Source: Verrucomicrobiota bacterium
Lineage (GTDB): Bacteria; Verrucomicrobiota; Verrucomicrobiia; Limisphaerales; UBA8199
Assembly: GCA_026397855.1 (NCBI GenBank)
Contig: JAPLUA010000264.1
Coordinates: forward strand, 1-63,701
Direction of reading: 5' to 3'
DNA: 63,701 nucleotides
Part shown: positions 6,803 through 40,888 of the stretch, one piece after another
Layout of the letters: every line of letters starts with the position of its first letter
Numbering within the stretch: the stretch's first letter is position 1
Position numbers and translations under genes: made by a program
The notes under the pieces: model-generated
What the model was told of the DNA's origin: nothing
The model's input: the letters and a program-made list of their open reading frames with translations, nothing else
Databases searched by the model: none

Positions 6803-6812
6803 GCGCTTCTTT

Positions 6813-6838: not shown

Positions 6839-6867
6839 GATCAGCATGCTGGCGGTTCGGGCTCGTA

Positions 6868-7040: not shown

Positions 7041-7089
7041 GTTCGATATTGCTACCGTCTTGAGACTGTCCGAGAGTTTGCTCCCGGTC

Positions 7090-7869: not shown

Positions 7870-7933
7870 GAAAGCCGTGATGGCGCGAACTCACCGCATA
7901 AAGGCGCAATGCCCTTGATGCGCGCGGGCGGCG

Positions 7934-22901: not shown

Positions 22902-22967
22902 CAGATCATGGCGCCGCCGGCGTTGACAGCGCTTCTTGCTGTCGCTGGCGGCGGCGCGCTGGAAAGG

Positions 22968-22997
22968 ATATTACCCTGCTCAAACGGTGCATGACAA
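22968..22997 (-). promoter_or_regulatory. candidate promoter for rex paralog 1 (TTGTCA-N18-TAATAT on the minus strand)
   Basis: Minus-strand TTGTCA (plus 22992-22997) and TAATAT (plus 22968-22973), about 67 nt upstream of the ATG at 22901. Confidence 0.35.
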
Positions 22998-23104
22998 CCG
23001 GCGAATGAGGAATCAGCGGAGCAAAAGCATAAATTCTTTGGCGGCCTAACCTGTTTGGGTCAAGGCGCTTAGGCCCGCGGCCTTGCGAGGCGGCAAAATC
23101 CCCG

Positions 23105-23175
23105 TTGACAGGGTGACCCATTCGCGCTTTATATATCGATATATAGTTCTCGATAGATGTATAGCGATATGAGTG
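23105..23175 (+). promoter_or_regulatory. candidate rex2/hyd operon control region: TTGACA -35, AT-rich -10 zone, 14-bp perfect palindrome ATATATCGATATAT, three 14-bp-phased CGATA boxes
   Basis: TTGACA at 23105-23110. Palindrome at 23131-23144. (T)CGATA(T) recurs at about 23137, 23151 and 23165. A conspicuous AT island in a GC-rich genome. Confidence 0.45.
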
Positions 23176-23882
23176 TAACGAAGCAAATGGCGCCGGACAC
23201 GGCGAAGGCGGTGCCGGAGCCGACCCTGAAGCGCCTGCCGCTGTATCACCGCTTCCTCAAGGAGTGGCGGCAGGCCGGCAAAGAGTCGGTTTCCTGCACC
23301 GACATCGGCGAGGAGCTGAAGCTGGATCCGACGCAGGTGCGCAAGGACCTGGAGGCGGCGGGGATCAGCGGCCGGCCGCGCATCGGCTATGCCACCGCGG
23401 CGGTGGTGGATGGGATCGAGCTATTCCTGGGGTGGAAGAAGGTCAGCGAGGCGTTCCTGGTGGGGGCCGGGAGCATGGGCTCGGCGCTGCTGGGCTACCG
23501 CAAGTTCGAGGAGTGTGGCCTGAAGATCGTGGCGGCCTTTGACCGTGACCCGGGCAAGATCGGGCGGAAGATCCACGGCAAGCATGTGCTGGCGCTGGAT
23601 AAACTGGCCGACCTGACGCGGCGGATGCACATCCTGATCGGCATCATCACCGTTCCGGCGGCGGAGGCGCAGGCGGTGGCGGACGTGCTTGTGGCGGGCG
23701 GCGTGCGCGCCATCTGGAACTTTGCCCCGATACGGCTGCGGGTGCCCGAGCACCTCATCCTCCATAACGAAGACCTCTACTGTTCCCTGGCGTCCCTTTC
23801 GCAGAAGCTGGCCCAGGCGCTGGAGGCAAACCCGGCCGAGGCCGCGCCGGTTCGGAAAACACGAACGGCCACTTTCAATTAA
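23157..23882 (+). CDS. rex: redox-sensing transcriptional repressor Rex (paralog 2), first gene of the hyd operon
   Basis: 'LKRLPLYHRFL...TQVRKDLE', 'AFLVGAGSMGSALLGY', 'VRAIWNFAP'. Possible starts at 23157, 23169 and 23187. Only 27 nt separate it from hydC. Confidence 0.9.
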   Translation: MYSDMSVTKQMAPDTAKAVPEPTLKRLPLYHRFLKEWRQAGKESVSCTDIGEELKLDPTQVRKDLEAAGISGRPRIGYATAAVVDGIELFLGWKKVSEAFLVGAGSMGSALLGYRKFEECGLKIVAAFDRDPGKIGRKIHGKHVLALDKLADLTRRMHILIGIITVPAAEAQAVADVLVAGGVRAIWNFAPIRLRVPEHLILHNEDLYCSLASLSQKLAQALEANPAEAAPVRKTRTATFN

Positions 23883-23909: not shown

Positions 23910-24437
23910 ATGACAGCCAAACGAAAGCCCGAAGGCACCGGCCGCAGATTTGTCAAAGTGTGCCATATACTGGACCAGCACAACCGCAACCCGGCGCGGC
24001 TGGTCCCCATCCTGCAGGCCGTGCAGGAGGAATACCGTTACCTGCCGCAGGAGGTGCTGACGTATGTCGCGACTGCGCTGGGCGTCTCGCCCGCGCGGGT
24101 CTATGGCGTGGCCACCTTCTACGCGCACTTCACCATCCTGCCGAAGGGCAAACATCTGGTCCGGCTGTGCGACGGCACGGCCTGCCACGTGAAGGAATCG
24201 GTGCCGATCCTGCGTGCGCTGCAAAAGCGGCTCGGAGTGGATGAGCAAAAGCGGCTCGGAGTGGATGACCGGCGCAAGACAACCGAGGACATGCTGTTCA
24301 CGGTGGAGACGGTCGCATGCCTGGGTGCCTGCGGCCTGGCGCCAGTCGTGGTGATAGACGACCAGGTTTACGGGCAACAGTCACCCGAAAGCGCGGTGAA
24401 GCTGGTGGAAGCCCTCATCACGCAGGAGGCCCAATGA
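23910..24437 (+). CDS. hydC: [FeFe]-hydrogenase HydC subunit (NuoE-like thioredoxin-fold [2Fe-2S] protein)
   Basis: 'ILQAVQEEYRYLP', 'GKHLVRLCDGTACH', 'ETVACLGACGLAPV'. Carries an in-frame 24-bp tandem duplication. Confidence 0.88.
   Translation: MTAKRKPEGTGRRFVKVCHILDQHNRNPARLVPILQAVQEEYRYLPQEVLTYVATALGVSPARVYGVATFYAHFTILPKGKHLVRLCDGTACHVKESVPILRALQKRLGVDEQKRLGVDDRRKTTEDMLFTVETVACLGACGLAPVVVIDDQVYGQQSPESAVKLVEALITQEAQ
24221..24268 (+). repeat. perfect 2 x 24-bp tandem duplication inside hydC (in frame; QKRLGVDE/QKRLGVDD)
   Basis: GCAAAAGCGGCTCGGAGTGGATGA at 24221-24244 is repeated exactly at 24245-24268. Confidence 0.95.
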
Positions 24438-26317
24438 GCGCACAAAGTCTGCCCCACCCGAACGGAAACAACGGCCACACGGCGCAACGGCGGGTCATCG
24501 TATGCGCGGGGACCGGCTGCGTGGCCAGCGGGGCCTACAAGGTTTTCCAGGCCTTGGTGGATCAAGTGCGGGCCGCCGGCCTCCCGGTCATAACCGAGTT
24601 CCGGCCGGAGCATGAAGCCGACGCGGTGCGCCTGAACAAGAGCGGCTGCCAGGGTTTCTGCCAGATGGGGCCGCTGGTGACGGTGCTGCCCGAGAACCTG
24701 CTGTATAACAAGGTCCGCGTTGAGGACGTGGCGGCGATTGTGGCTGAGACGCTGGTCGCCGGTCGGCTGGTCGAGCGGCTTCTCTATGTGGATTCGACCA
24801 CCAAGAAGCGTTGCCGGGGCGTGGAAGAGATTCCGTTTTACCAGCGCCAGCAGAGGTTTGTGCTCCGTTCCTGCGGCACCATTGATCCGGAGAGCATTGA
24901 CGAGTATGTGCACCAGGGCGGCTACGCGGCGGCGAAGAAGGCTTACGTGCAGATGACGCCGGAACAGATTTGCCAGGAGATCACCCGATCGGGCCTGCGC
25001 GGCCGGGGCGGCGGCGGTTTCCCCACGGGGCGCAAGTGGGAGGCGGCCCGGAGTCAGCCCGAGGGAAAGAAATATGTGATCTGCAACGCGGATGAGGGGG
25101 ATCCGGGCGCGTTCATGAACCGCAGTGTGATGGAAGGAAACCCTCACAGCGTGCTGGAAGGGCTGATGATTGCCGCGCGCGCGATTGGCGCGGACGAGAC
25201 GCTGATCTACGTCCGGACCGAGTACCCGCTGGCGGTGCAACGCATGCGCAGCGCGGTCAAGGACGCAGAGGCGCGCGGTTTCCTGGGCGACAACGCTTTC
25301 GGGACCGGCCGACCGCTGCGGTGCGAGGTGATGGAAGGCGCGGGGGCGTTTGTGTGCGGCGAGGAGACCGCGATGATCGCCTCCATCGAGGGGCAGCGCG
25401 GCATGCCGCGGCCTAAACCGCCTTTCCCGGCCCAGAGCGGCCTTTGGGGCAAGCCGACCATCATCAACAACGTCGAAACCCTGGCGCACGCGGTCCGCAT
25501 TGTCAACGAAGGCGCCGAGCAATTCCGGACACTGGGCACGGCGGCCTCTCCGGGCACAAAGACGTTCGCACTGACCGGCCACGTCGCCAACACCGGGCTG
25601 GTGGAAGTGCCTTTCGGGGCCACGCTGCGAGAGGTGGTATTCGATATTGGGGGCGGCATTACGGATCGCCGCGGCAAGGTGACCCGGGATGGCTTCAAGG
25701 CGGTGCAGATCGGCGGGCCGTCGGGCGGCTGCCTCACGCGCGACCACCTGGATCTGCCGCTCGATTACGATTCCCTGCGCGGGGCAGGGGCCATGGTTGG
25801 CTCCGGCGGGTTGGTGGCGATGAACAGCAAGACCTGCATGGTGTCCAGCGCCCGGTTCTTCATGGACTTCACCCAGCGGGAGAGCTGCGGCAAGTGCGTG
25901 CTGTGCCGCGAGGGCACGCGCCAGATGCTGGCGTTGCTCGACGACATCATCGAAGGGCGCGCCACCGCCGGGACGCTGGAGCTGCTGCAGAAGCTGGCGT
26001 CGGCCGTGCAGAAAGGCTCGCTCTGCGGGCTGGGCAAGACGGCCCCCAATCCGGTCCTTTCCACCCTGCGCCACTTCCGCGAGGAATACGATGCGCACGT
26101 GTTTCACAAGCACTGTCCCACCGGACAATGCAAGGCGCTGGCAAAGCCGAGCATTGACCCGGCCAAATGCAAGGGCTGCACCGCCTGCGCGAAGAAGTGC
26201 CCCGTCAATGCCATCACCGGCGAAAGGAAGCAGGCGCACACGATCAACCAGGCGCTCTGCATCAAGTGCGGTGTCTGTGTGGACACCTGCAAACTGGACG
26301 CGGTCATTGGCGTATAG
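24434..26317 (+). CDS. hydB: [FeFe]-hydrogenase HydB subunit (NuoF-like NADH/FMN/Fe-S flavoprotein)
   Basis: N-terminal 2Fe-2S 'VCAGTGC...CQGFCQMGP', 'GLRGRGGGGFPTGRKW', 'ESCGKCVLCREG', C-terminal 2x 'CxxCxxCxxxCP'. ATGA overlap with hydC. Confidence 0.92.
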   Translation: MSAQSLPHPNGNNGHTAQRRVIVCAGTGCVASGAYKVFQALVDQVRAAGLPVITEFRPEHEADAVRLNKSGCQGFCQMGPLVTVLPENLLYNKVRVEDVAAIVAETLVAGRLVERLLYVDSTTKKRCRGVEEIPFYQRQQRFVLRSCGTIDPESIDEYVHQGGYAAAKKAYVQMTPEQICQEITRSGLRGRGGGGFPTGRKWEAARSQPEGKKYVICNADEGDPGAFMNRSVMEGNPHSVLEGLMIAARAIGADETLIYVRTEYPLAVQRMRSAVKDAEARGFLGDNAFGTGRPLRCEVMEGAGAFVCGEETAMIASIEGQRGMPRPKPPFPAQSGLWGKPTIINNVETLAHAVRIVNEGAEQFRTLGTAASPGTKTFALTGHVANTGLVEVPFGATLREVVFDIGGGITDRRGKVTRDGFKAVQIGGPSGGCLTRDHLDLPLDYDSLRGAGAMVGSGGLVAMNSKTCMVSSARFFMDFTQRESCGKCVLCREGTRQMLALLDDIIEGRATAGTLELLQKLASAVQKGSLCGLGKTAPNPVLSTLRHFREEYDAHVFHKHCPTGQCKALAKPSIDPAKCKGCTACAKKCPVNAITGERKQAHTINQALCIKCGVCVDTCKLDAVIGV

Positions 26318-26335
26318 GCCGCCTGCCAACAGAGC

Positions 26336-28322
26336 ATGAAACCGACAGACATCAAACCATTTGAAGGCAATATGACTACCACTGTAGCTGCAAAGACATT
26401 GACCATTGACGGGCGCGAGGTGCCATTCAACGGCGAGCGCAACCTGCTGGAGCTGATTCGAAAAGCGGGCATTGACCTGCCGACCTTCTGCTATCATTCG
26501 GAGCTCAGCGTCTATGGGGCTTGCCGCCTCTGCCTGGTGGATATCCAGGGCCGCGGCATCCAGGGCGCCTGCTCGACGCCTCCTGAAGCCGGCCTGAAGG
26601 TGCGCACGCAGACGGAAGAGATTCGCGACATCCGGAAGATCACGATTGAGCTGCTCCTGGCCAACCATGACCAGCAGTGCCCGACCTGCCCGAAGAGCTC
26701 GGCCTGCCAGCTCCAGGATATTGCCCGCAAGCTGGGCATCCGCAAGGTCCGCTTCAAGCCCGTGCACCAGCCCGCGGAGCTGGACCTCTCGTCGGTTTCG
26801 CTGGTGCGCGGTCCGAACAAGTGTGTGCTATGTGGGGATTGCGTGCGCTTCTGCGAGGAGATCCAGGGCGTTGGCGCCATTGATTTCGCCCATCGGGGTC
26901 ACGAGGCGGCCGTGCTGCCCGCCTTTGGTAAAGGTTTGGGCGAGGGCGAGTGCATCAACTGCGGCCAATGCGCCGCGGTCTGTCCCACCGGTGCGCTGAC
27001 GCCGCGGCCCGAAGTGGACGAGGTCTGGCGCGCGCTCAACGACCCGGTCAAGACCGTGGTAGCCCAGCTCGCCCCGGCGGTGCGGGTGGCGATCGGCGAA
27101 GCCTTCGGCCTGGCCCCCGGCATGTCGGCCAGCGGCCAAATCGTGGCGGCGCTGAAGCGCCTCGGGTTTGACAAGGTTTACGACACCGCCTTCAGCGCCG
27201 ACCTGACGGTGGTTGAAGAGGCCAACGAGTTCCTGAAGCGGAAGGCCAAGGGCGAGAAGCTGCCGCAGTTCACCAGTTGCTGCCCGGGCTGGGTCAAGTT
27301 CGCCGAGCAGTATTTCCCCGAGCTGCTGCCAAACCTGTCGACATGCAAGTCGCCGCAGCAGATGCTCGGGGCGCTGTGCAAGGCCACCCTGCCGGGCGAG
27401 ATGGGCATTCCGAGGGAGAACCTCGTCATGGTTTCCATCATGCCCTGCACCGCCAAGAAGTTCGAGGCCAAGCGGCCCGAAGTTCCGCTTCAAGGAACTC
27501 GAACCCGAGTCCTTCGATATGCCGCTCGGCTTCAAGACCGGCGCCGGGGTCATCTTCGGCAACTCGGGAGGCGTAAGCGAAGCGGTCCTGCGATATGCCG
27601 CCGAATCGGTCACCAAGCGGAAGCTGGAGAACCCGGATTTCCACGCGGTGCGCGGCGAGGACGGGATCCGCCTGGCCACGGTCGCCCTGGACGGGGTGCA
27701 ACTCAAGCTGGCCGTGGTGCATGGATTGAAGAATGCCCGCACGCTGGCGGAGAAAGTGCGCCGGGGCGAATGCGAGCTGGACCTCATCGAGGTAATGGCT
27801 TGCCCGGGCGGTTGCATTGGCGGCGCCGGCCAGCCGGTGTCGCGCGAACGCGATATCAAGCGCTTGCGCACCCGGGGCCTGTATGAAGCCGACAAGCATC
27901 TGGACCTGCATAAGTCCCAGGAAAACCATCACGTGACAGAGATGTACCAGACCTATCTGGGCGAAATCGGCGGGCGCAAGGCCCATCACCTCCTGCACAC
28001 CCACTATCAGAACCGGCGGCGCATCGCAGATGAGCGGCTCGTGTTCGGCGACGGGCCTGACGGGGAGAAGCTCAAGGTCAGCGTGTGCGCGGGCACCAAC
28101 TGCTTCCTGAAAGGCTCGCAGGAGGTAATCCGCGACGTGCTCCAATGCGTCGAAGCCCAGGAACTGCAAGACCAGGTCGAAGTGAGCGCTTCGTTCTGCT
28201 TCGAGAAATGCGACCAGGGCCCGACCGTCCGGGTGGACGGCCAGCAAATCCAGCACTGCACTGGCCAGAAGGCGTGCGCCGCAATGCGCGAGCGCCTGAA
28301 GGCCAAACTCGCGCCCGAGTGA
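26336..28322 (+). pseudogene. hydA: [FeFe]-hydrogenase catalytic subunit HydA, interrupted by an out-of-frame internal deletion near 27480
   Basis: N-terminal Fe-S domains plus P1 'FTSCCPGW' and P2 'IMPCTAKKFEA' read in frame A until 'AKRPE'. 'FKELEPESFDMPLGFKTGAGVIFG...' and P3 'IEVMACPGGCIGGAGQP', plus a C-terminal 2Fe-2S domain, continue in another frame (ORF 27519-28322). Confidence 0.85.
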
Positions 28323-28347: not shown

Positions 28348-29757
28348 ATGAAAACGACACGTTCCAACCAACAGGCCACCTTCATTGACGAAGCCAAGAT
28401 CGCCGCGACGCTCGCCTCGGCGCGGGCCTGCGATGCCAGCCAGGTCCGTGAGATCCTGGCCAAGGCGCGCGAAATGAAGGGCCTGGCCGCCTCCGACATG
28501 GCGACGCTGATGGAGAACAACGACCCCGGGTTGTTGGAGGAGATGTATGCCACGGCCCGGCATGTGAAGGACGAGATTTACGGCAACCGCCTGGTGCTGT
28601 TCGCCCCGCTCTATATCTCGAACCTGTGCCACAACGAGTGCCTTTACTGTGCGTTCCGCGCGCGCAACAAAGAGCTGCTCAGGCGCACGCTAACCCCGGA
28701 GGAGATCGCGAATGAGACGAGCATTCTCATCGAGCAGGGGCATAAGCGCGTGCTGCTGGTCTCGGGTGAAAGCTATCCGGAGGAAGGCTTTGATTATGTC
28801 CTCAAGGCGATCGAGACGGTTTACAGTACCCGCAGCGGGCGCGGGGAAATCCGCCGCATCAACGCGAACGTGGCGCCGCTGAGCGTCGAGGACTATAAGC
28901 GGCTCAAGGCGGCGAAGATCGGGACATACCAGTGCTTCCAGGAGACCTATCACCGTGGGACTTACGCCGCCGTGCATGTCGCCGGGACGAAGCGGGACTT
29001 CGACTGGCGGGTGACCTGCTTTGACCGCGCGATGCAGGCGGGCATTGATGACGTGGGGATCGGGGTGCTGTTTGGGCTTTACGACTGGAAGTACGAAGTG
29101 CTCGCGATGAAGCAGGAGATTGAGCACCTCGAAGGCGCTTTCGGCGTGGGGCCGCACACCATCAGCGTGCCCAGGATCGAGCCGGCGGTCGGTTCGACCC
29201 TGGCTTACGCGCCGGCTCATCCGGTCTCGGACGGCGACTTCAAGAAGATCGTGGCACTGCTGCGCCTGGCGGTGCCCTACACCGGCATCATTATGTCCAC
29301 GCGGGAAAACGCTGCCACGCGCCGGGCGACATTCGAGCTGGGTGTTTCCCAGATCTCGGCTGGCAGCCGTTGCGACCCGGGCGGCTACGCCGCATCGGCC
29401 GACGGGCACAACTCGGAGCAGTTCCAGTTGGGGGATCACCGCTCGCTGGACGAGGTGGTGCGCGACGTGGCGGCGCTCGGCTATACGCCTTCGTTTTGCA
29501 CGGCGTGCTATCGGCTGGGGCGCACTGGGGCCGATTTCATGGACCTGGCCAAACCCGGCCTGATCAAACATCACTGCGCGCCCAATGCGCTGTCGAGCTG
29601 CATGGAATACCTGCTGGACTACGCGAAGCCGGAGACGCGCAAGGTGGGCGAAAGCCTGGTCGCGCGTGAGCTGGAGACGATGGAGCCCTCGGTGCAGGAG
29701 ATTGGCCGGCGCCTGGTGACGGAGGTGCAGGAGGACAAACGGGATGTTTATGTATAA
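28348..29757 (+). CDS. hydG: [FeFe]-hydrogenase maturase HydG (radical SAM tyrosine lyase)
   Basis: 'LYISNLCHNECLYCAFRA' radical SAM motif and the C-terminal auxiliary-cluster motif 'CTACYRLGRTG...HHCAPNA'. GGAGAG SD upstream. Confidence 0.9.
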   Translation: MKTTRSNQQATFIDEAKIAATLASARACDASQVREILAKAREMKGLAASDMATLMENNDPGLLEEMYATARHVKDEIYGNRLVLFAPLYISNLCHNECLYCAFRARNKELLRRTLTPEEIANETSILIEQGHKRVLLVSGESYPEEGFDYVLKAIETVYSTRSGRGEIRRINANVAPLSVEDYKRLKAAKIGTYQCFQETYHRGTYAAVHVAGTKRDFDWRVTCFDRAMQAGIDDVGIGVLFGLYDWKYEVLAMKQEIEHLEGAFGVGPHTISVPRIEPAVGSTLAYAPAHPVSDGDFKKIVALLRLAVPYTGIIMSTRENAATRRATFELGVSQISAGSRCDPGGYAASADGHNSEQFQLGDHRSLDEVVRDVAALGYTPSFCTACYRLGRTGADFMDLAKPGLIKHHCAPNALSSCMEYLLDYAKPETRKVGESLVARELETMEPSVQEIGRRLVTEVQEDKRDVYV

Positions 29758-29776
29758 AGGCTGTGTTTAGGGACCC

Positions 29777-31285
29777 ATGAGCGCTTTTCGCACTGAATCC
29801 GATCTGTTGGGCGAGTTGCCGATCCCGGCGGCCGCCCTGCACGGCATTCATACGGCCCGCGCGCTGGACAACTTTCCGCTGGCGTTGCAGCCGGTGGCCC
29901 CGGGCCTGGTCCGGGCGTACGGGACGGTGAAGCTGGCCTGCGCCATGACCAACCGCGCGCTTGGGGCCTGGGCGGATGATGCTCCCAAGGCAGACGCGAT
30001 CGAGCGCGCCTGCCGCGAGCTGGGCGAAGGTTTGCTGGACCGGCAGCTGGGCGAAGGTTTGCTGGACCGGCACATCGTGGTGGACCGGTTGCAGGGCGGG
30101 GCAGGGACCAGCACGAACATGAACGTTAACGAGGTGCTGGCCAATCGTGCGCTGGAGCTGCTCGGCGAACCGCCGGGCACTTATGGCCGCGTATCTCCGC
30201 TGGAGGATATCAACCTGCATCAGTCCACCAACGACACCTACCCGACGGCTTTGCGGCTGGCCGCAATCGTTGCCTTGCGCGAGTTGGAGCGGCGCGTGGT
30301 GGCGCTGCAGGAAGCCTTCCAGGCCGCTGAAAAACGCTTCGCGCATGTCGTCAAGGTCGGCCGGACCCAATTGCAGGACGCCGTGCTGACGACCCTGGGA
30401 CGTGAGATGGGGGCGTATGCCGAGGCGATGAACCGTGACCGCTGGCGGATCTACAAATGCGAGGAGCGTCTGCGGGTCGTCAATCTTGGGGGCACCGCCA
30501 TCGGCACCGGGCTGGCGGCGCCGCGCCAGTTCATCTTCCGGGTGACCGATACGCTGCGTGAGCTTGCCGGGATTGGTTTTGCCCGCGCGGAGAACCTCGT
30601 GGACGCCACGCAGAATGCGGACGTGTTCGTGGAGGTGTCCGGCATCCTGAAAGCGCACGCCGTTTCCCTGCTGAAGATCTGCGGCGACCTGCGGCTGATG
30701 GCTTCGGGGCCGGAAGCCGGGCTGCGCGAGATCCGCCTGCCCGCCCGCCAGGCCGGCTCGTCCATCATGCCGGGCAAGGTGAACCCGGTCATCCCCGAGG
30801 CAGTCAGCCAGGTGGCCATGCTGGTGATGGGCCACGACGCGACCATCGCCTCCGCCTGCGCCGCCGGCAGCCTGGAGCTGAATCCGTTTCTGCCCCTGGT
30901 GGCCGCTTGCCTGCTGGAAAGCCTGGAACTGTTGGGCCGGGCCGACGACATTCTCTGCCGCCATTGCGTTTCGGGTCTGGAAGCCGACGAGGCACGCTGC
31001 CGCCAGCATGTGCTCAACTCGACCGCCGCGGCGACGGCGTTGCTGCCGGCGCTTGGCTATGACCGGGTTTGCGAATTGGCGCGGTCGAGCGCTGAGACCG
31101 GCCGCACCGTCCGCGAGCTTGCGATCACGAATGGCTGGCTCTCGGCCGCGGCGTTCGATGAGCTGATCAGCCCTGAAGCCGTTTGCCGGCTTGGCACGCC
31201 GGACCTGCCGCACCCCGATCCCGACACGGGGCGCGCGGACGCACGCGCCAAGGCCGACGACTGCAAACAGGAGGCGAAGCCATGA
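29777..31285 (+). CDS. aspartate ammonia-lyase-like class II fumarate-lyase-family enzyme embedded in the hyd maturase operon
   Basis: 'FRTESDLLGELPIP', 'QGGAGTSTNMNVNEV', 'TQLQDAV', signature 'GSSIMPGKVNP'. ATGA overlap with hydF. Contains an in-frame 27-bp duplication. Confidence 0.85.
   Translation: MSAFRTESDLLGELPIPAAALHGIHTARALDNFPLALQPVAPGLVRAYGTVKLACAMTNRALGAWADDAPKADAIERACRELGEGLLDRQLGEGLLDRHIVVDRLQGGAGTSTNMNVNEVLANRALELLGEPPGTYGRVSPLEDINLHQSTNDTYPTALRLAAIVALRELERRVVALQEAFQAAEKRFAHVVKVGRTQLQDAVLTTLGREMGAYAEAMNRDRWRIYKCEERLRVVNLGGTAIGTGLAAPRQFIFRVTDTLRELAGIGFARAENLVDATQNADVFVEVSGILKAHAVSLLKICGDLRLMASGPEAGLREIRLPARQAGSSIMPGKVNPVIPEAVSQVAMLVMGHDATIASACAAGSLELNPFLPLVAACLLESLELLGRADDILCRHCVSGLEADEARCRQHVLNSTAAATALLPALGYDRVCELARSSAETGRTVRELAITNGWLSAAAFDELISPEAVCRLGTPDLPHPDPDTGRADARAKADDCKQEAKP
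30019..30072 (+). repeat. perfect 2 x 27-bp tandem duplication inside the aspA-like gene (in frame; LGEGLLDRQ/LGEGLLDRH)
   Basis: GCTGGGCGAAGGTTTGCTGGACCGGCA at 30019-30045 is repeated exactly at 30046-30072. Confidence 0.95.
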
Positions 31286-32577
31286 CAGCTCCCGCGCCCA
31301 AGGGCCTGCGGCTGCATATTGCGCTTTTTGGAAGGCGCAACGTGGGTAAGTCCAGCATGCTCAATGCGGTAACGCATCAGCAGCTCTCGATTGTCTCGCC
31401 CATTGCCGGCACGACCACCGACCCGGTAGAAAAGCCGATGGAACTGCTGCCTCTGGGGCCCGTCCTCTTTGTGGATACCGCTGGGGTAGACGATGCGGGG
31501 ACGTTGGGTGAGCTGCGGGTGCAGAAGACGCGCCAGGTGCTGGACCGGGCCGACTTGGGGGTGGTCGTGGCGGAAGCAGGCCAATGGGGCGAGTTCGAAG
31601 AGCAGCTTCTGGTCGAGCTCGCGGGCCGGAAGATTCCTGCGATCGTCGTGTTCAATAAGGCGGATGCTGCCGAGCCGGATCCTCTGCTGTGGGAGCAGTT
31701 GGGGCAACGGCAACTGCGCCGCGTGCGCGTCAGCGCGCTCCAGCACACCGGCATCGCGGAGTTCCGGCAAGCGCTGCTCGAAGCCGCGCCCGCGGATTTC
31801 ATTGATCATCCTGCCATCCTCGGCGATCTGGTCGGCCCGGGCGAAATGGCGGTGCTGGTGGTGCCGATTGACAAGGAGGCGCCGCGCGGTCGGTTGATAC
31901 TGCCCCAGGTGCAGGCTATTCGAGACCTGCTGGACAACGATGCCTTTTGCCTGGTCGTGAAGGAGCGCGAGCTGCGCAGCGCGCTGGATCGGCTTAAGAG
32001 CCCTCCCCGGCTCGTCGTGACCGATTCACAGGCCTTCTTGAAGGTCGCCGCCGACACTCCGCGCGAGGTGCCGTTGACCAGCTTTTCGATCCTGATGTCG
32101 CGCTTCAAAGGGGATTTGACGGTACAGGTGCAGGGTGCGCTGGCCATTGAGAATCTGCGTGGCGGGGACCGCGTCCTGATCGCGGAAGCCTGCTCGCACC
32201 ATCCGATTGGCGAGGACATTGGCAGGGTGAAGATCCCCCGCTGGCTGACCCAGTTTGTGGGGGGACAGCTCCATTTCGAGCATGTGCAGGGGCATGATTT
32301 TCCAGCGGACCTCTCGCCGTATCGCCTGGTGGTGCATTGCGGGGCCTGCATGTGGAATCGCCGCGAAATGCTCGGCCGGATCCTGCGCTGCCAGCAAGCT
32401 GGCGTGCCTGTGACCAACTACGGTCTGGCCATCGCCTACAGCCTGGGCATCTTCGAGCGGGCGCTGGAGCCGTTTCCGGCGGCGCTGGAGCTCTGGCGCA
32501 ACGCCGCGCGAAACCCCGCAGCCCGGATGCCGGCACCCGCTTCAGCACCCCGGGAAAGGAGCGCGTGTTCTGCATGA
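31282..32577 (+). CDS. hydF: [FeFe]-hydrogenase maturase HydF (GTPase scaffold)
   Basis: 'IALFGRRNVGKSSMLNA', 'DTAG', 'NKAD', C-terminal 'CSHHP...HCGACM' cluster motif. Confidence 0.9.
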   Translation: MTAPAPKGLRLHIALFGRRNVGKSSMLNAVTHQQLSIVSPIAGTTTDPVEKPMELLPLGPVLFVDTAGVDDAGTLGELRVQKTRQVLDRADLGVVVAEAGQWGEFEEQLLVELAGRKIPAIVVFNKADAAEPDPLLWEQLGQRQLRRVRVSALQHTGIAEFRQALLEAAPADFIDHPAILGDLVGPGEMAVLVVPIDKEAPRGRLILPQVQAIRDLLDNDAFCLVVKERELRSALDRLKSPPRLVVTDSQAFLKVAADTPREVPLTSFSILMSRFKGDLTVQVQGALAIENLRGGDRVLIAEACSHHPIGEDIGRVKIPRWLTQFVGGQLHFEHVQGHDFPADLSPYRLVVHCGACMWNRREMLGRILRCQQAGVPVTNYGLAIAYSLGIFERALEPFPAALELWRNAARNPAARMPAPASAPRERSACSA

Positions 32578-33647
32578 ACGCGCCGCTCACGCTCACAGAC
32601 ATCCTGGCCTGGCTCCGGGAGGACGATCCGGCGCGGCTCAAGACGCTTTGGGCCCGAGCTGATGAGACCCGCCGCCTGAACGTGGGCGACACCATCCATT
32701 TGCGAGGGCTGGTTGAGATTTCGAGCTGGTGCGTCCGCCAGTGCGCCTACTGTGGGCTGAGGGTGGACAACCAATCGCTGACCCGCTACCGGATGGAGCC
32801 GGGAGAGATCCTGGAGTCGGCGCGCCAGGCAGTGGCGTTTGGCTATGGCACGGTCGTGCTTCAGGCCGGCGAAGATTTCGGCCTGACCTGCGAATGGGTT
32901 GCCGACGTGGTCAGGCAAATCAAGAACGAGACGCCGCTGGCTGTCACTCTAAGCCTGGGTGAGCGGACCGAAGCCGAACTGGACGCCTGGCGCAAGGCCG
33001 GGGCGGATCGCTACCTCCTGCGCTTCGAAACCTCGGACCAGGCCCTGTTCGAGCTGATTCACCCGCGCCGGAACCCGGATGCCGCGGGCCGCATCCCCTT
33101 GCTCCGCCAGCTTAAGCAACTCGGTTACGAGGTCGGCAGCGGGATAATGGTCGGCCTGCCGGGCCAGACTTACGAGAGCGTGGCCCGTGACATTGATCTA
33201 TTTCGCGAGCTGGACCTGGACATGATCGGCATCGGGCCGTTCATTCCGCATCCACAGACCCCGCTGGGCACCGGCGAACTGAAGCCCGTTATTGAGCCCG
33301 ACGAGCAGGTGCCCAACACCGAACTGATCGTGTATAAGGCAGTGGCCCTCACCCGCCTCGTGCGTCCGGACGCCAACATCCCCAGTACGACAGCCCTTGC
33401 CACCATCAACAAGCGCAATGGGCGGGAACTGGGGTTGCAGCGGGGCGCCAACGTGCTCATGCCCAATCTGACGCCGGCTAAATACCGGAAGCTTTACGAG
33501 ATCTACCCCGCCAAAGCCTGCATCGAGGAAACCGGAAGTGCCTGCAACGGCTGTCTCCGGATGCGGATAACCGCAATCGGACGCCAGATTGCCCAAGGCC
33601 CCGGCGGTAGGAAACGGCATGCGCAGGAAAGGGATGTGTTGTGTTAG
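32574..33647 (+). CDS. hydE: [FeFe]-hydrogenase maturase HydE (radical SAM)
   Basis: 'VEISSWCVRQCAYCGLR'; BioB-like fold and length (357 aa). ATGA overlap with hydF. Confidence 0.88.
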   Translation: MNAPLTLTDILAWLREDDPARLKTLWARADETRRLNVGDTIHLRGLVEISSWCVRQCAYCGLRVDNQSLTRYRMEPGEILESARQAVAFGYGTVVLQAGEDFGLTCEWVADVVRQIKNETPLAVTLSLGERTEAELDAWRKAGADRYLLRFETSDQALFELIHPRRNPDAAGRIPLLRQLKQLGYEVGSGIMVGLPGQTYESVARDIDLFRELDLDMIGIGPFIPHPQTPLGTGELKPVIEPDEQVPNTELIVYKAVALTRLVRPDANIPSTTALATINKRNGRELGLQRGANVLMPNLTPAKYRKLYEIYPAKACIEETGSACNGCLRMRITAIGRQIAQGPGGRKRHAQERDVLC

Positions 33648-33658
33648 ACCGCGCGTTA

Positions 33659-33860
33659 CGAAATCCGAAGGCCGAAGCCCGAAATCCGAAGGAAGGCCGA
33701 AGCCCGAAATCCGAAAAGCGGCGTGTCAACGGGTCACCAAAGGGGCTGGCTGTCCAGGCGCTGATGGGAACTTTCGCAGCCTGCTACGAGTGTGGCGTGA
33801 GGGCTTCAGCCTTCGGATTTCGGCCTTCCTTCGGATTTCGGCATTCGGCATTCGGATTTA
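33659..33860. repeat. ~200-bp MITE-like element with ~45-bp terminal inverted repeats built from CCGAA/CGAAGCCC units
   Basis: 33661-33705 is the near-perfect reverse complement of 33815-33859 (about 3 mismatches). The arms are internally iterated (GAAATCCGAAGG...). Confidence 0.8.
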
Positions 33861-33869
33861 CCCCTCCCC

Positions 33870-34133
33870 ATGTCCCCTGAACCTCTCAACTCCATCATGA
33901 TCTGCATGGGCAGCTCGTGCTTTTCGCGCGGCAACAACCGGAACATTGAAGTGATCCAGGAGCACCTCGCGGCCCAGCCGCTCCCGGCGGGGGTTGAACT
34001 CACCGGCCACCTGTGCGAAGGCCACTGCAAGGCGGGTCCGAACGTCACGATCAACGGCAAGATGTATCACGAGGTGGACCCCATCGTCATCATCGGCCTG
34101 CTCAACCACTACAGCCAGCAACGAGAGGGATAA
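33870..34133 (+). CDS. small thioredoxin-like [2Fe-2S] ferredoxin
   Basis: 87 aa; 'ICMGSSCF' (Cx4C) and 'LCEGHCKAGPNV' (Cx3C), the same pattern as the NuoE-type domains in HydB/HydA. Confidence 0.8.
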   Translation: MSPEPLNSIMICMGSSCFSRGNNRNIEVIQEHLAAQPLPAGVELTGHLCEGHCKAGPNVTINGKMYHEVDPIVIIGLLNHYSQQREG

Positions 34134-34140
34134 ACTTCCT

Positions 34141-35930
34141 GTGAACTTCCTGAATCCCATCTACACGGAAAAGCGCGAATGCCAGGATTGCTACAAGTGC
34201 GTTCGGCATTGTCCCGTCAAAGCCATCAAGGTGGAGGGCGGTTACGCCTCGGTGGTTCCGGAGCTGTGCATCCTGTGCGGGCACTGTGTGGAGGTCTGTC
34301 CGAACTCGGCCAAGCGGGTGCGGGATGATCTGTCCCAGGCGCGGCAACTGCTCGCGCTCAAGCCGCGCGTGCTGGTATCGCTGGCCCCCTCTTATGTGAG
34401 CGAGTTTCCGGAACTGCAACCCGGCCAGCTCATTCGCGCCTTCAAACGGCTCGGCTTTTCCGGAGTTTCCGAGACCGCCCTGGGCGCCCAGCAGGTCTCC
34501 GCTCAGGCTGCCGCCGCCCTGGCGGAAGGCAGCGGGCGAGTGCTCTATTCCTCGGCCTGCCCGACGGTGGTGAGCTACCTGCAGAAGCATCGGCCCGCCG
34601 ACTCGCAATACCTCACCGGGCTGCTTTCGCCGTTGCTGACGCACTGCAAGATGCTGCGGCAGGGCTTCGGGCAGGACATCGGCATCGTGTTTGTCGGTCC
34701 GTGCATCGCCAAGAAGCTCGAAGCCGCCCAGCATCCGGCATTGCTGGATGTCGCGCTCACCTTCGACGACTTGCGCCGGTGGCTGACGCAGGAGCAGATC
34801 ATGCCGGAGACACTGGCGGCTGAGGCCGGGGATAGCTTCATCCCGGAGCACTCCGCTGAAGGCGCGTGGTATCCGGTGGACGGGGGCATGATCGCGGGAA
34901 TGAAATCCATCTGTGCGGTGAACGATTGCTCGTTCATGGCCTTCTCCGGCATCAACGCTATCCAGAAGGCGATCGAGGGGTTGGGCACCCAGCCGATGGA
35001 CGGAAGCCTGTTCCTGGAGTTGCTCGCGTGCGAGGGCGGCTGCGTGAACGGTCCGCGCGCCGCCAAACGGTATGGCACGGCCGCCAAGCGCCGCCGGGTG
35101 CTTCGGGCGGTGGTGGCGCCCCCGCCGATGCTCCCGCGCCAGTCCAGCCTGGACATCCAGTCCATATTCGCCGTAGCGCCCCAGCCGCTGCTCAAGTTTT
35201 CCGAGTCGCAGATCCGGGAAGCCCTGCGTGCGGTCGGCAAGATTTCACGGGATGACGAGCTGGACTGTGGCGGCTGCGGTTACAATTCGTGCCGCGAGTT
35301 TGCCGGGGCGCTCATCCAGCAAAAGGCGGAACGCGCCATGTGCGTCACCTACATGCGCAAGCTGGCGCTGAAGAAGGCGAACGCCCTCATTCAGAAGATG
35401 CCCTCGGCCGTCGTGATCATCAACGACGCGATGCGCATCATCGAATACAACACCGCCTTCGCCACCCTGTTCGCCTGCAACGTGGCGCCGGCGGGCTCAC
35501 CCCCGACGGGCGCGTCTCTGGAAGGGGTGATGCTGAGCGAGATCATGCCCTTCGCCAACCTCTTCCACGCCGTGCTGAAGAGCGGCGAGGACATCCTGGA
35601 TCGGGACCTCCGCTACCAGAAGACCATTCTGCACTCCGCTACCAGAAGACCATTCTGCATGCCGGTATTTTCACCATTGAAAAGCACTGCGTGGTGGGCG
35701 GCATCCTGCAGGACATCACGGAGCCGGCCGTCCGGAAGGCGGAGGTGATCCGCAAGGCGCAGGAGGTCATCCAGCGCAGCCTGCAGACCACGCAGACCAT
35801 CGCCTGCCTGCTGGGCGAGAGCGCCGCCGAAACCGAGATCACCCTCAACTCGATCATCGAATCCTTTTCGCCCGCCAAACTGGAGGAGCCCAAGCATGAG
35901 AACGATTGGCGAAAGCTTTATAGACGTTGA
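34141..35930 (+). pseudogene. hydS: HydS-type putative sensory [FeFe]-hydrogenase (Fd domain, H-domain, Cx2Cx4Cx16C, PAS), frameshifted by a 26-bp tandem duplication
   Basis: GTG at 34141 after a GAGAGGG SD. 'CQDCYKCVRHCP', 'CILCGHCVEVCP', 'SSACPTV', 'GPCIAKKLE', 'ELLACEGGCVNG', 'CGGCGYNSC-x16-C'. The frame switches at the duplication; ORF 35289-35930 carries the C-terminus '...LRYQKTILHAGIFTIEKH...DITEP'. Confidence 0.88.
35608..35659 (+). repeat. perfect 2 x 26-bp tandem duplication inside hydS (frameshifting)
   Basis: CTCCGCTACCAGAAGACCATTCTGCA at 35608-35633 is repeated exactly at 35634-35659. Deleting one copy fuses ORFs 33994-35748 and 35289-35930 in frame. Confidence 0.95.
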
Positions 35931-37077
35931 TTCCTCCCAGCGCGCCAAGGCCGGCCAGGTGGTCTCCGGTGACGTCTTCCTCTCGCGGCGCATCAAGCCC
36001 GAGGGGCGCATCATCTCCATCCTCTCGGACGGTCTGGGCAGCGGCGTCAAGGCCAGCGTGCTGGCGAACCTGACGGCCACGATGGCGCTGCGGTACACGT
36101 CGGCCTTTGTGGATGTCCGCAAGAGCGCGGGCACCATCATGGACACCCTGCCGATCTGCGAGGTCCGCAAAATCAGCTACTCCACGTTCACCATCGTTGA
36201 CCTGGATGAGCGGGGCCATGCCCGGGCGATTGAGCACGGCAACCCCGCCCTGGTGCTGATGCGCGGCCAGAGGGCGCTGCCGCTGGAGCGGGTGGACATC
36301 ACCCTGGATAATTGGAAGGATCGCACCATCAGCTACAGCGAGTTTGATGTCCAACTGGGCGACCGGATTGTCTGCGCCTCAGACGGCATCAGCCAATCGG
36401 GGTTGGGCCGCAAGGGCCTGCCGCTCGGCTGGGGCAGCGAGAACTTCGTCCGCTTCCTGTCGCAGCAGGTAGGGCAGGAGCCGGAAATCTCTTCGCAGGA
36501 ACTCTCCCGGAAGGTCGTCGCCGAGGCCCTGGTGAACGACGGCGCCGCCGCCAAGGACGACATGACCTGCGGCGTGGTTTACTACCGTCACCCGCGCCGG
36601 CTCCTGGTCATCACCGGGCCGCCCTTCTGCAAGGAGCGCGATGGCGAATTGGCGGAGATGGCGGAGTCGTTTCCCGGGAGCAAAGCCATCTGCGGCGGCA
36701 CCACCGCCAATATCATCTCGCGCCTGCTCAACCGGCCGGTTCGCGCCTGTCTGGCCAAACTCGATCCGGAGATACCCCCGCCGGCCTTAATGCAGGGCAT
36801 TGACCTGATCACCGAAGGGACCATGACCCTCGCGCGCGTCGCGGAAATGCTGGAGCGCGGCGCGCAGCAACCGTGGCCCGACAACGCGGCCCGCGACCTG
36901 CTGGCCCTGATGCTCCGGAGCGATGTCGTCGAGTTTGTGGTCGGCACGCGCATCAATGAGGCTCACCAGGACCCGAATGTGCCGGTTGAGCTCGACCTGC
37001 GCCGCAATATCATCCGCCGCATCGTCGGGCTGCTGGAGAGCAAACACCTCAAGGAGTGTTCCGTCCGGTTCCTCTGA
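35896..37077 (+). CDS. SpoIIE/PP2C-family Ser/Thr phosphatase with a ~160-aa C-terminal domain of unknown function
   Basis: 'SGDVF', 'ILSDGLGSGVKASV', 'GDRIVCASDGIS', 'KDDMTCGVV' PPM motifs. GGAGG SD 8 nt upstream. Overlaps the hydS 3' end by 35 nt. Confidence 0.85.
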   Translation: MRTIGESFIDVDSSQRAKAGQVVSGDVFLSRRIKPEGRIISILSDGLGSGVKASVLANLTATMALRYTSAFVDVRKSAGTIMDTLPICEVRKISYSTFTIVDLDERGHARAIEHGNPALVLMRGQRALPLERVDITLDNWKDRTISYSEFDVQLGDRIVCASDGISQSGLGRKGLPLGWGSENFVRFLSQQVGQEPEISSQELSRKVVAEALVNDGAAAKDDMTCGVVYYRHPRRLLVITGPPFCKERDGELAEMAESFPGSKAICGGTTANIISRLLNRPVRACLAKLDPEIPPPALMQGIDLITEGTMTLARVAEMLERGAQQPWPDNAARDLLALMLRSDVVEFVVGTRINEAHQDPNVPVELDLRRNIIRRIVGLLESKHLKECSVRFL

Positions 37078-38794: not shown

Positions 38795-40888
38795 TCAAAC
38801 AGTATCGGTCTCCACAATCAGGATGGCCTGGGGCAGGCCGCCGGCACTTTTCAGCAGCCTCCAACTGCTGTGGACGGCCACCTTCAGGCCCGCCCTGGTT
38901 CGTTTCTCGAGGGAGATATTCCAGGTGCCGGCTTGCAGGGTTTGCTCAAGGCAGGTTCGCAGGCCCGGGATCTCCTCCTCTGGCTGCATCTGCTGGAATT
39001 CCCGGCCAATGGCCTCGTCCGCCGTCCAGCCGAAGATTCGTTGGGCGCCCTTGTTCCAGTAGAGGATGCGCCCGGCCAAATCCAGCACCGCGATGGCATC
39101 ATGCGTCAGGTCGAGCAGTTCGGCCTGCTCCCGGATTCGGTCCGCTGCCTGCTTCTGTTCCGTGATGTCCCGCAGGTAGGTCAGAAAGCGTTCTGGCCCA
39201 CCCTGGTCATTGGTGACCAGCGAGACGTTGGCATCGAGCCAGAGGAACTTGCCATCGCGGCGTCGGAACCGTTTCTCAGTGCTGAACGATTTGAGGTCGC
39301 TGGCAAGGAGCCGCTGGTATTGCCACCAGTCAGACTCCACATCGTCGGGGTGGGTTACATCCTGGAGTCGGCGTGCGAGCAGCCCGGCTTTGGTATAGTC
39401 GAGCAGTTGGCAAAGCTGGGGCGGGACTTCCAGCCAGCGGCCGTCCAGGCCGATCTCGGCCACCATGATGTGGGAGAAGGATTTCGCCCGGGTCAGGCGG
39501 GCCTGGCTTTCACAAAGCGCCGCCTCCGCCAGCTTGCGCCCTGTGATGTCAGTCACGACCCCCACGACGCGCGTCGGGTGGCCCTCCTTGTCTCGCACCA
39601 AGGTTCTGCCCGTGTCCAAAACCCACTTCCATTTGCCGGACTTTGTGCGCAGCCGGTGCTCCGACTCGTAGGCCGCCGTGCGCCCCTCCAGGTGTCCGGT
39701 CAATCGCTCAATAACGGCAGGAAGATCTTCGAGATGGACGTGCTGTTTGAAGAAATCTACGGTTGGCTTAACCTCTGCCGGCGCATACTCCAGCATCGAA
39801 GCCCACAGGTCGTTATAGACAACCGCGCCCGTTTGAGGGAACCAATCCCAGCTGCCCAGCGCGCCCCCGTGCAGCGCAAAGTCGAGCCGCTGCCGGCTCT
39901 CGCGCAACATGCCCTCCGCCTGCTTGCGGCCGAGCGCGATCCCGATGCTGGCGCCCAAACCCTCAAAGAAGCGGATCATCCCGGGCGTAAACCGGTTGGG
40001 CCGATGGTCGTTGAGCTGCAGCAGCCCGATGATCTCCGCGCCTGTTCTGAGCGGGATCAGCGCCACGGACTCATAGCCCTCGCCGTGGCAGCGGTTGCGG
40101 GTGCGCGCCAGGCGATCGGCATCGGTTGTGGTGGCCAGCAGCGTTGTGGTGCTGTTGGTCCAAAAGCTGCCTCCCGCCGTGAAGATCGGCAAGGCGGGGT
40201 TGGTCCGTCCACGGAGAATATTGCCGCACATGCACTCGAGTACCGGGTTTCCAAGGGCGTCACGCACCACCCCGCCCGCCTGGTCATGCGCGCACAAAAA
40301 ACGTTCCGCGCGCACGAAGTCCCCGGAAAACCCCAGGGTTTCGTAGTAGGGAAAATCATCCCCCTCCACCAGGCGGATGCCAACCGCGTCAAAGCCGGTG
40401 GCGATCTTGACCGCCCCCAGGAAGTCGTGAATTGTTTTTTCCAGGTCTTGAGAACGGTTGAGCACTTCCAGGATCTCCCGGGCGAGGTGTTCCCGGGTCT
40501 CCGTCTTTTGTCGCTCCATTGCATACAGCGCAACCCGCAGGAGCAGGCTCCCGCTCATCTCCCCTTTCAGGAGCCATTGCTGGGCTCCCTCTCGCATGGC
40601 CGCAATCCCCCGCTCGAGGTCGTCTGTTCCAGTCAGGACAATCACTGGCACGCCTGGTGCCGCTTGGCGCAACTCCCGCAAGGTTGCCATGCCCTGACTG
40701 CCGGGTTCGCCCAGATCCAAGAGGACCAGGTCAACCGTTCCGGCCTTCAACCGGGCGGCCGCCTCCGCAGGTCGGGCCGTCGGGAGAATCGAAAAACCAG
40801 TTAATCCGCCCTCCATCAGCACATCCCTGATGGAGCCCGCCCCCAAGGCGTCATCCTCCACTGGCAAGATGGAAAGAGTTCGGATCAT
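38795..40888 (-). CDS. response-regulator receiver - GAF - 3x PAS signalling protein with no output domain (possibly truncated hybrid kinase)
   Basis: REC 'DLVLLDLGEPGSQG...PVIVLTG'. PAS ends marked by 'VVTDITGRK' and 'LRDITEQK'. The protein stops at 'LIVETDTV*', exactly where the third DIT linker would start. Confidence 0.8.
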   Translation of the reverse strand: MIRTLSILPVEDDALGAGSIRDVLMEGGLTGFSILPTARPAEAAARLKAGTVDLVLLDLGEPGSQGMATLRELRQAAPGVPVIVLTGTDDLERGIAAMREGAQQWLLKGEMSGSLLLRVALYAMERQKTETREHLAREILEVLNRSQDLEKTIHDFLGAVKIATGFDAVGIRLVEGDDFPYYETLGFSGDFVRAERFLCAHDQAGGVVRDALGNPVLECMCGNILRGRTNPALPIFTAGGSFWTNSTTTLLATTTDADRLARTRNRCHGEGYESVALIPLRTGAEIIGLLQLNDHRPNRFTPGMIRFFEGLGASIGIALGRKQAEGMLRESRQRLDFALHGGALGSWDWFPQTGAVVYNDLWASMLEYAPAEVKPTVDFFKQHVHLEDLPAVIERLTGHLEGRTAAYESEHRLRTKSGKWKWVLDTGRTLVRDKEGHPTRVVGVVTDITGRKLAEAALCESQARLTRAKSFSHIMVAEIGLDGRWLEVPPQLCQLLDYTKAGLLARRLQDVTHPDDVESDWWQYQRLLASDLKSFSTEKRFRRRDGKFLWLDANVSLVTNDQGGPERFLTYLRDITEQKQAADRIREQAELLDLTHDAIAVLDLAGRILYWNKGAQRIFGWTADEAIGREFQQMQPEEEIPGLRTCLEQTLQAGTWNISLEKRTRAGLKVAVHSSWRLLKSAGGLPQAILIVETDTV

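Follow-up and report, generated by a model that had tools for sequence, protein, structure and literature searches.

A locus of probable group C3 ('phosphatase-linked') type with a putative H2-sensing [FeFe]-hydrogenase in a Limisphaerales-type Verrucomicrobiota bacterium

Introduction

Group C of the [FeFe]-hydrogenases contains putative sensory enzymes (HydS), and the class in which HydS is combined with a Ser/Thr phosphatase is listed in HydDB as group C3, 'phosphatase-linked' (Sondergaard et al. 2016, PMC5037454). Enzymes of group C with the M2f architecture are recognised by the replacement of C299 and M353 (PMC8163306, PMC10055695). Here we describe a three-gene locus encoding a small [2Fe-2S] ferredoxin (fdx), a HydS protein and a PP2C phosphatase, located at positions 33870-37077 of contig JAPLUA010000264.1 (GenBank assembly GCA_026397855.1) from a Verrucomicrobiota bacterium. 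The whole stretch of 63,701 nucleotides (nt) that was analysed is called the window. In an earlier note on this DNA the trio had been presented as a minimal form, reduced in this genome, of an undescribed relay from H2 to phosphorylation.

Systems of this kind have been published from several organisms. The genetically studied counterpart is hfsABC of Thermoanaerobacterium, in which hfsB encodes a PAS-containing hydrogenase and hfsC a Ser phosphatase, and regulatory phenotypes show a role in regulation (PMC5707799, PMC11837493). For R. albus, one study describes the phosphatase as a subunit of the sensor (PMC6776011). C3 genes located beside A3 bifurcating hydrogenases have been reported in Hydrogenedentota and Lernaellota (PMC11406978, PMC9324843). 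With the C3 class already defined, and with R. albus, hfsABC and C3 genes of other phyla in the literature, the words minimal, reduced and undescribed do not fit the relay.

A system of the same logic but of different descent is the regulatory [NiFe]-hydrogenase HoxBC/HoxJ/HoxA of Cupriavidus. As it is summarised in PMC5707799, H2 is sensed there by a crippled hydrogenase, and hydrogenase genes are controlled through protein phosphorylation to which this enzyme is coupled. The metal centre and the proteins in that summary are unrelated to those of HydS, and the output is a histidine kinase and response regulator, whereas a Ser/Thr phosphatase is encoded here.

Results

The locus is very probably a typical group C3 cassette with a putative H2-sensing [FeFe]-hydrogenase, carried by a Limisphaerales-type Verrucomicrobiota bacterium. 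The PP2C gene starts inside the 3' end of hydS once the frame of the latter is repaired (see below), and among related loci with room for it a PP2C gene lies directly 3' of hydS in every case (76/76). The fdx-HydS-PP2C trio is real and represents a known class in its usual form, neither a reduced nor an undescribed system. As in other C3 members, for example R. albus HydS, an H-cluster domain with a C-terminal PAS domain (putative in the present protein) is encoded adjacent to a Ser/Thr (PP2C) phosphatase gene. The position next to the presumably regulated hydrogenase, with Rex nearby, is also the same, and in both cases the function is putative. There is no essential difference from the class; this copy is of the Limisphaerales type, is located downstream of maturase genes and is frameshifted in the record. 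The trio closes a hydCBA-hydG-lyase-hydF-hydE cluster that is associated with Rex.

The hydS gene (34141-35930, + strand) encodes a putative sensory [FeFe]-hydrogenase of group C (M2f-type), and its frame is broken in the record by a tandem duplication. Removal of one duplication copy gives a 1764-nt gene for a protein of 587 amino acids (aa), referred to below as repaired HydS. The profile searches suggested in the earlier note, when run on this protein, returned two Fer4 domains, Fe_hyd_lg_C (E=1e-41) and the FeS domain PF04060 (E=1e-8), and all motifs that had been read from the DNA are present, i.e., two CxxCxxCxxxCP motifs, SSACPTV, GPCIAKKLE, ELLACEGGCVNG and CGGCGYNSC-x16-C. The motifs were mapped by alignment to solved structures of group A enzymes. 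In this alignment SSACP coincides with the group A motif TSCCP, so that the proton-relay Cys (C299 of CpI) is an Ala; GPCIAKK coincides with MPCxxKK, which gives Gly as the M353 equivalent, and ELLACEGGC with EVMACPGGC, which gives Leu as the M497 equivalent. The H-cluster Cys ligands of P1, P2 and P3 are retained, and the two N-terminal [4Fe-4S] motifs and the C-terminal Cx2Cx4Cx16C motif are present. The loss of the relay Cys to Ala and of M353 to Gly, together with the M2f architecture, supports the claim that this is a sensory-type enzyme. Repaired HydS scores far below the NCBIfam cut-offs for groups A and B1. The PAS assignment is based on family-level matches and the literature, and several close HydS homologues carry precomputed PAS matches. 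The last ~65 residues, which follow the PAS region, belong to the best conserved stretches of HydS, and their coding sequence overlaps the start of the PP2C gene.

TmHydS of Thermotoga maritima (group C, M2f; Chongdar et al.; PMC10055695) shows the same succession of two [4Fe-4S] motifs, H-domain, Cx2Cx4Cx16C motif and PAS domain (the last putative in the present protein), and also has Ala and Gly as the C299 and M353 equivalents (PMC8163306). The M497 equivalent is Ser in TmHydS and Leu here, at a position that is known to vary. The two sequences are only distantly related. In hfsABCD of Thermoanaerobacterium saccharolyticum and Thermoanaerobacterium thermosaccharolyticum the order of small protein, PAS-hydrogenase (HfsB) and Ser phosphatase (HfsC) is the same, a likeness drawn from descriptions of the Hfs proteins. 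In those organisms HfsD is encoded downstream, whereas here a trimeric HydABC is encoded upstream. HfsA has been described as unlike known proteins, whereas the small protein of the present locus is a clear thioredoxin-like [2Fe-2S] ferredoxin.

The ferredoxin gene (33870-34133, + strand) is intact and encodes 87 aa, or 78 aa if an internal ATG is used. Its Pfam match (PF01257, E=1.9e-8) and the cysteine spacing Cx4C...Cx3C confirm the 87-aa [2Fe-2S] protein of the earlier reading, and an identical protein occurs in public assemblies under the names (2Fe-2S) ferredoxin and NuoE-like. A small [2Fe-2S] protein encoded in the hydrogenase operon of T. maritima was characterised in 2003, according to a citation in PMC10055695. 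A similar thioredoxin-like [2Fe-2S] module with Cx4C...Cx3C spacing forms the C-terminus of HydA (28100-28322, repaired) and resembles the free-standing ferredoxin that precedes hydS.

The distribution of the cassette was examined by scanning one genome per species, and the best 80 loci, with 45-92% identity, were used for synteny and motif counts. HydS relatives are encoded in at least 326 species. For repaired HydS there are thousands of homologues, with more than 100 clusters at 71-93% identity over the full length. The 80 loci come from about 10 phyla. Those of Limisphaerales/subdivision 3 Verrucomicrobiota are closest (91-92%), and others belong to Planctomycetota, Lentisphaerota, Desulfobulbus, Ignavibacteriales, Acidobacteriota, Cloacimonadota, Spirochaetes, Omnitrophota, Aminicenantia and further groups. 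With this spread the module is not specific to the Planctomycetota-Verrucomicrobiota-Chlamydiota (PVC) bacteria. Cultured carriers include Oligosphaera ethanolica, Desulfobulbus elongatus and Victivallis vadensis, to which one complete Lentisphaerota genome can be added.

The earlier note had allowed for relatives in which the gene order is not conserved or the catalytic TSCCP Cys is kept. Besides the invariable PP2C gene, the small ferredoxin gene lies directly 5' of hydS in 68 of 75 loci, and S(S/T)ACP occurs in 77 of the 80 family loci, (G/S)PCxxKK in 79 and Cx2Cx4Cx16C in all 80. These counts bear out neither of the two possibilities. Rex is part of the same contiguous same-strand cluster in 37 of the 49 loci where this could be judged. 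HydB was detected in 52 of 80 loci, a count limited by contig ends. The dominant layouts are Rex-HydCBA-(maturases)-fdx-HydS-PP2C and Rex-fdx-HydS-PP2C-HydCBA, and every HydS-PP2C pair adjoins a hydrogenase operon, which is of type A3 or monomeric and hfsD-like. In four loci (L051, L065, L067 and L073) the trio is followed by a gene for a monomeric HydA-like protein of ~480 aa in place of HydCBA, which is the hfsABCD-type layout outside Firmicutes. One Lentisphaerae locus (L053) encodes a second HydS-like protein (6550-8685, - strand) that is fused to a histidine-kinase catalytic domain and is group C1-like. This gene is divergently oriented beside the Rex-fdx-HydS-PP2C cassette, which places two sensor types next to each other.

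The phosphatase open reading frame (ORF; 35896-37077, + strand) is intact and encodes 393 aa. Its first part (35896-36597) is a SpoIIE-family PP2C Ser/Thr phosphatase domain (PF07228, E=6e-11) in which the SGD, SDGLGSG, SDGI and DDMT motifs and the metal-binding Asp are kept, as judged from alignment to SpoIIE (5mqh/3t91). The sequence GGAGGAG is found 9-15 nt upstream of the ATG, and the earlier identification of a SpoIIE/PP2C phosphatase with its own Shine-Dalgarno sequence is thereby confirmed. The top Foldseek matches were SpoIIE, RsbU and RsbX (5mqh, E=1.5e-9), with an N-terminal part of the model that is of low confidence. The 35-nt overlap with hydS stated in the earlier note exists for the conceptually repaired gene; as the record is written, frame 1 stops at 35748 and the overlap is lost. 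An overlap of the two coding regions suggests that HydS and PP2C may be co-translated and form a physical complex. RsbU, RsbP and SpoIIE share with this protein the PP2C fold, the catalytic motifs and the placement of a phosphatase under a sensory module. Unlike these proteins, the phosphatase described here lacks an N-terminal regulatory domain, the sensor (PAS and helices) being a separate protein. It also carries a unique C-terminal α/β domain and has no STAS or GHKL partners in cis.

This C-terminal domain (36598-37077; residues 235-393, ~160 aa) is unannotated and family-specific, and it is predicted with confidence to be an α/β domain (AlphaFold2 (AF2), predicted local distance difference test score (pLDDT) 90.7). 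It gave no Pfam match at E<=10 and no significant fold match in the PDB (best E=0.013, template-modelling (TM) score <0.5). Matches to UbiX-like and FwdB-like Rossmann-type folds were weak and not significant, and neither Pfam nor Foldseek gave support for a STAS, GHKL-kinase or receiver identity. The domain is represented by ~843 representative clusters, and among the matches listed it almost always corresponds to residues ~235-395 of proteins of ~390 aa. It is present in 76 of 78 HydS-adjacent PP2Cs, including every complete one. In conservation it equals or surpasses the catalytic domain (median identities of 58% and 51%, respectively). A conserved ~160-aa C-terminal domain of the PP2C that matches neither Pfam nor PDB entries is a modestly new finding.

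No HATPase_c, STAS or protein-kinase domain was found among the called genes of the 63.7-kb window, and in the +/-10 kb around the 80 loci neither a kinase gene nor a STAS gene is recurrent. Clustering of 483 unlabelled flanking ORFs yielded no family that occurs in more than 4 loci. An iterative search of the related loci turned up no more than five GHKL kinases, at distances of 1-8 kb, and a Hanks-kinase motif was present in none of these loci. The earlier statement that no kinase or STAS partner is encoded in cis is thus borne out for the called genes of the window, and none is recurrent in the 80 loci. That no kinase/STAS pair is linked to the trio is real and characterises the family as a whole, and it is not a reduced state of this genome. 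The accompanying statement that a DNA-binding partner is missing in cis was inaccurate, since two Rex repressor genes are part of the same cluster. Rex paralog B (22170-22901, - strand; Pfam Put_DNA-bind_N and CoA_binding) and paralog A (23157-23882, + strand; assigned by Pfam), the first gene of the hyd cluster, are redox-sensing repressors of the Rex family. They are divergent and share a spacer (22902-23156) with a TTGACA-type promoter-like site. The spacer also contains a perfect 16-nt palindrome, TATATATCGATATATA (23130-23145), and a related half-site is found at 23160.

The span 34141-35930, which the earlier note had treated as one gene, comprises 1790 nt, which is not a multiple of 3, and is not an ORF. 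Two frames had been joined there and a perfect tandem duplication of 26 bp had been overlooked. The duplicated unit, CTCCGCTACCAGAAGACCATTCTGCA, is present in two copies at 35608-35659 (+ strand; Tandem Repeats Finder (TRF) score 104, 100% identity) and shifts the frame in the PAS region. As written, frame 1 extends from the GTG at 34141 through '...DLRYQKTILH' and continues with 36 out-of-frame codons to a stop at 35746-35748, giving 535 aa. The sequences 'GGILQDITEP' and AGIFTIEKHCVVGGILQDITEP and the C-terminal tail of HydS can be read only in frame 3 (ORF 35289-35930), in which the true C-terminus runs from 35660 to the stop at 35928-35930. The repaired protein of 587 aa is identical, residue for residue, to the public protein P0391, and HydS is also 587 aa long on the sibling contigs shown with a complete hydS, except for one with a scaffold gap. 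Siblings were aligned at 97-99% nt identity (L001, L002, L090-L092), 94% (L089) and 87% (L008). The duplication is absent from L001 and, appearing as a 26-nt gap, from L002, L003, L005, L006, L007 and L091. Programmed frameshifting or recoding at 35608-35659 was rejected, as every sibling compared there, like the relatives from other species, has a single copy and one uninterrupted frame. A HydS of 603 aa in sibling L004 was considered as a second duplication allele and dismissed; its extra length is a scaffold gap of Ns. A 30-mer across the duplication junction had no match in metagenome contigs of the Joint Genome Institute (JGI), in which the single-copy version was matched once.

Similar lesions occur elsewhere in the window. 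In hydC a perfect duplication adds 24 bp at 24221 (24221-24268), and in the lyase gene one of 27 bp is found at 30018 (30018-30072); both are in frame and are lacking in the siblings. In hydA (26336-28322) a 77-nt deletion at 27482 removes '...FAEDGVPEVDHVLTTQELARMIEEAG...' and causes a frameshift, and these 77 nt are present in every sibling compared at this site. Among the aligned sequences the lesions of hydC, hydA, the lyase gene and hydS occur in the window alone and are a property of this record. With hydS and hydA both frameshifted in the record, the locus makes a poor example of the clean candidate that the earlier note had seen in it. A perfect 22-bp duplication at 58348 (58348-58391) shifts the frame of an ABC-transporter ATPase exactly at its Walker A motif, and the repaired ATPase is identical residue for residue to the public protein P0405. 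Damage of the same type in this unrelated gene weakens the idea of hyd-specific gene decay. Perfect tandem duplications of 15 bp or longer were not found in sibling loci L001-L009 (~80 kb in total). Siblings with complete genes encode a HydC of 167 aa, a HydA of 675 or 687 aa, a HydB of 627 aa and a lyase of 493 aa, and identical PP2C, Rex and ferredoxin proteins were found on many public contigs. In some other sibling assemblies the lyase or HydB is split. Exact look-ups of the lesion-bearing HydC and lyase and of the truncated HydS gave no match, a result that we count as uninformative.

The wider gene context given in the earlier note, with the trio downstream of two Rex genes, HydC/B/A and HydG/F/E, was confirmed by profile searches. 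The hydC-hydB-hydA genes (23910-28322, + strand) encode a group A3 [FeFe]-hydrogenase of the NADH/ferredoxin bifurcating type, as assigned by profiles and by comparison with siblings. They are followed on the same strand by the H-cluster maturation genes hydG, hydF and hydE and by a gene for an aspartase/fumarase-like lyase (28348-33647 together). The lyase gene (29777-31285) is located between hydG and hydF, a position that is kept in loci of Verrucomicrobiota, Planctomycetota and Desulfobulbus. This position hints at a possible role in H-cluster maturation, e.g., in nitrogen supply. The 222-nt spacer between hydE and fdx is filled by an inverted-repeat element (33661-33859, not assigned to a strand) resembling repetitive extragenic palindromes or miniature inverted-repeat transposable elements (REP/MITE-like), which has 55-nt arms of 85% complementarity and consists of CGAAGGCCGAAAYCCGAAG units. 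In some siblings (L001, 3699-3920) another 222-nt copy of this repeat type occupies the hydG-lyase gap; the window has none there, i.e., the element is polymorphic. On the other side of the trio, 1.7 kb downstream, a gene on the - strand (38795-40888) encodes a protein with a response-regulator receiver, a GAF domain and three PAS domains and no recognisable output domain. As a partner of the module this protein was rejected, since its conservation is limited to close siblings and does not extend over the family.

Discussion

In the mechanism that we propose for the cassette, H2 would react slowly at an H-cluster that is deprived of its Cys proton relay, and the H2 pressure would be tracked by the redox state of this H-cluster and its accessory clusters, of which two are the N-terminal [4Fe-4S] clusters and the third is the Cx2Cx4Cx16C cluster beside the PAS domain. 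The small [2Fe-2S] ferredoxin may exchange electrons with HydS, either to reset it or to link it with the redox pool of the cell. The PAS domain and the highly conserved helical tail of ~65 aa could then undergo changes that depend on redox state and switch the activity of PP2C, which would dephosphorylate a phospho-Ser/Thr protein encoded elsewhere. Together with the NADH-sensing Rex, this output would tune expression or activity of the adjacent hydrogenase. Several observations weigh against this reading of the locus. The sensing of H2, the activity of PP2C and the HydS-PP2C complex are putative elements of a mechanism that we infer from gene content and protein motifs. PAS_8 matched repaired HydS with E=0.002, below the gathering score, in a region that the frameshift splits in the record. 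For the canonical Rex operator, TTGTGAA-N6-TTCACAA, the window contains only a match at chance level. Published enzymology is limited to TmHydS and TamHydS, and how the signal is transduced is described as unknown (PMC11376134), in agreement with the remark in the earlier note that the target of the PP2C and its feedback on hydABC or Rex are not established.

The output of the cassette may differ from that described above. It is possible, if somewhat unlikely, that PP2C is the input phosphatase of a partner-switching system, in which its substrate would be a phosphorylated STAS protein, a GHKL kinase/anti-sigma factor would be encoded elsewhere and H2 would control a sigma factor or another switch output. 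The closest solved relatives of the phosphatase, SpoIIE, RsbU and RsbX, all dephosphorylate STAS proteins, its catalytic motifs are intact, and unlinked partners are common in such systems. However, no STAS or GHKL gene is among the called genes of the window and none recurs around the 80 loci from about 10 phyla, which is unusual for modules that are normally operonic; what is conserved nearby is Rex and the hydrogenase. We find it quite unlikely that PP2C acts directly on Rex or on a HydABC subunit, with the C-terminal domain docking or sensing; the signals of H2 and NADH would in that case come together without a kinase/STAS pair of their own. In favour of this, the cluster includes Rex in 37 of 49 loci, often immediately upstream of fdx, the HydS-PP2C pair is in every case attached to a hydrogenase operon, and the C-terminal domain, which has no known homologue in Pfam or PDB, is conserved no less than the catalytic domain (median identity 58% versus 51%). 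On the other hand, phosphorylation of Rex or HydABC is unsupported and the proposal is pure guilt by association; 12 of the 49 judgeable loci have no Rex in the cluster, and a kinase would still be needed somewhere. An elaboration of it, in which the phosphatases linked to HydS would be a signalling family of their own that works with no dedicated kinase/STAS pair, the C-terminal helices of HydS holding PP2C and the C-terminal domain of the latter acting on Rex or HydABC to merge H2 and NADH sensing, must be regarded as speculative and very unlikely. The sensory role itself can also be questioned. HydS could be a catalytic or electron-transfer subunit of HydABC with low activity (called 'BfuT' in one study), or a ferredoxin or redox sensor with [2Fe-2S] input. 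All H-cluster Cys ligands and the accessory clusters are kept, a dedicated ferredoxin is co-encoded, and a C3 gene has been treated as part of bfu gene clusters (PMC11406978). Yet the proton-relay Cys is lost almost universally in the family, characterised relatives have very low and irreversible activity (PMC11376134, PMC8163306), and an obligatory PAS domain with a PP2C neighbour speaks for signalling. We consider these functions other than H2 sensing very unlikely.

The lesions raise the separate question whether this copy is a working module. It could be that they are real and that the strain recently lost its bifurcating hydrogenase (hydA) and H2 sensor (hydS), which would leave the module as a fresh pseudogene remnant. 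Two hydrogenase genes are damaged within one cluster, the lesions are probably in the deposited record, and split lyase or HydB genes in some other sibling assemblies fit such a history. The 1-nt indels relative to the 94%-identical sibling (L089) are all intergenic, which indicates good base-level quality, consistent with real lesions, and sets the lesions apart as a distinct class. Against this, perfect duplications of 22-27 bp also affect the ABC ATPase, hydC and lyase genes, so the process is not hyd-specific, and the duplication copies are all 100% identical and narrow in size range. The disruption of 3 of ~46 genes, extrapolated to the whole genome, is implausible for a viable cell. The siblings with 97-99% identity have no lesion wherever a lesion site is covered, and hydE, hydF, hydG, fdx and PP2C are intact and conserved. 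We consider genuine recent loss unlikely. Most likely the frameshift in hydS and the similar lesions are assembly artefacts or very recent events and no functional feature, given that they are perfect, of narrow size range and not confined to hyd genes, and that the gene-disruption rate they imply for the genome is implausible.

How group C sensory [FeFe]-hydrogenases relay their signal is a recognised open question, and the locus described here belongs to the class without adding anything unique to it. The same cassette is present in hundreds of species, and experiments would be far better served by cultured carriers such as Oligosphaera ethanolica DSM 24202, Desulfobulbus elongatus DSM 2908, Victivallis vadensis and Lentisphaerota strain zth2 than by a damaged metagenomic copy. 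A lesson from the hydS gene is that gene models read by eye need a check of frame continuity. For the family as a whole, the comparison has useful by-products, i.e., the adjacency of HydS and PP2C, the consistent lack of linked kinases, the strong linkage to Rex and the C-terminal domain of the PP2C, which could be a substrate- or partner-binding element.

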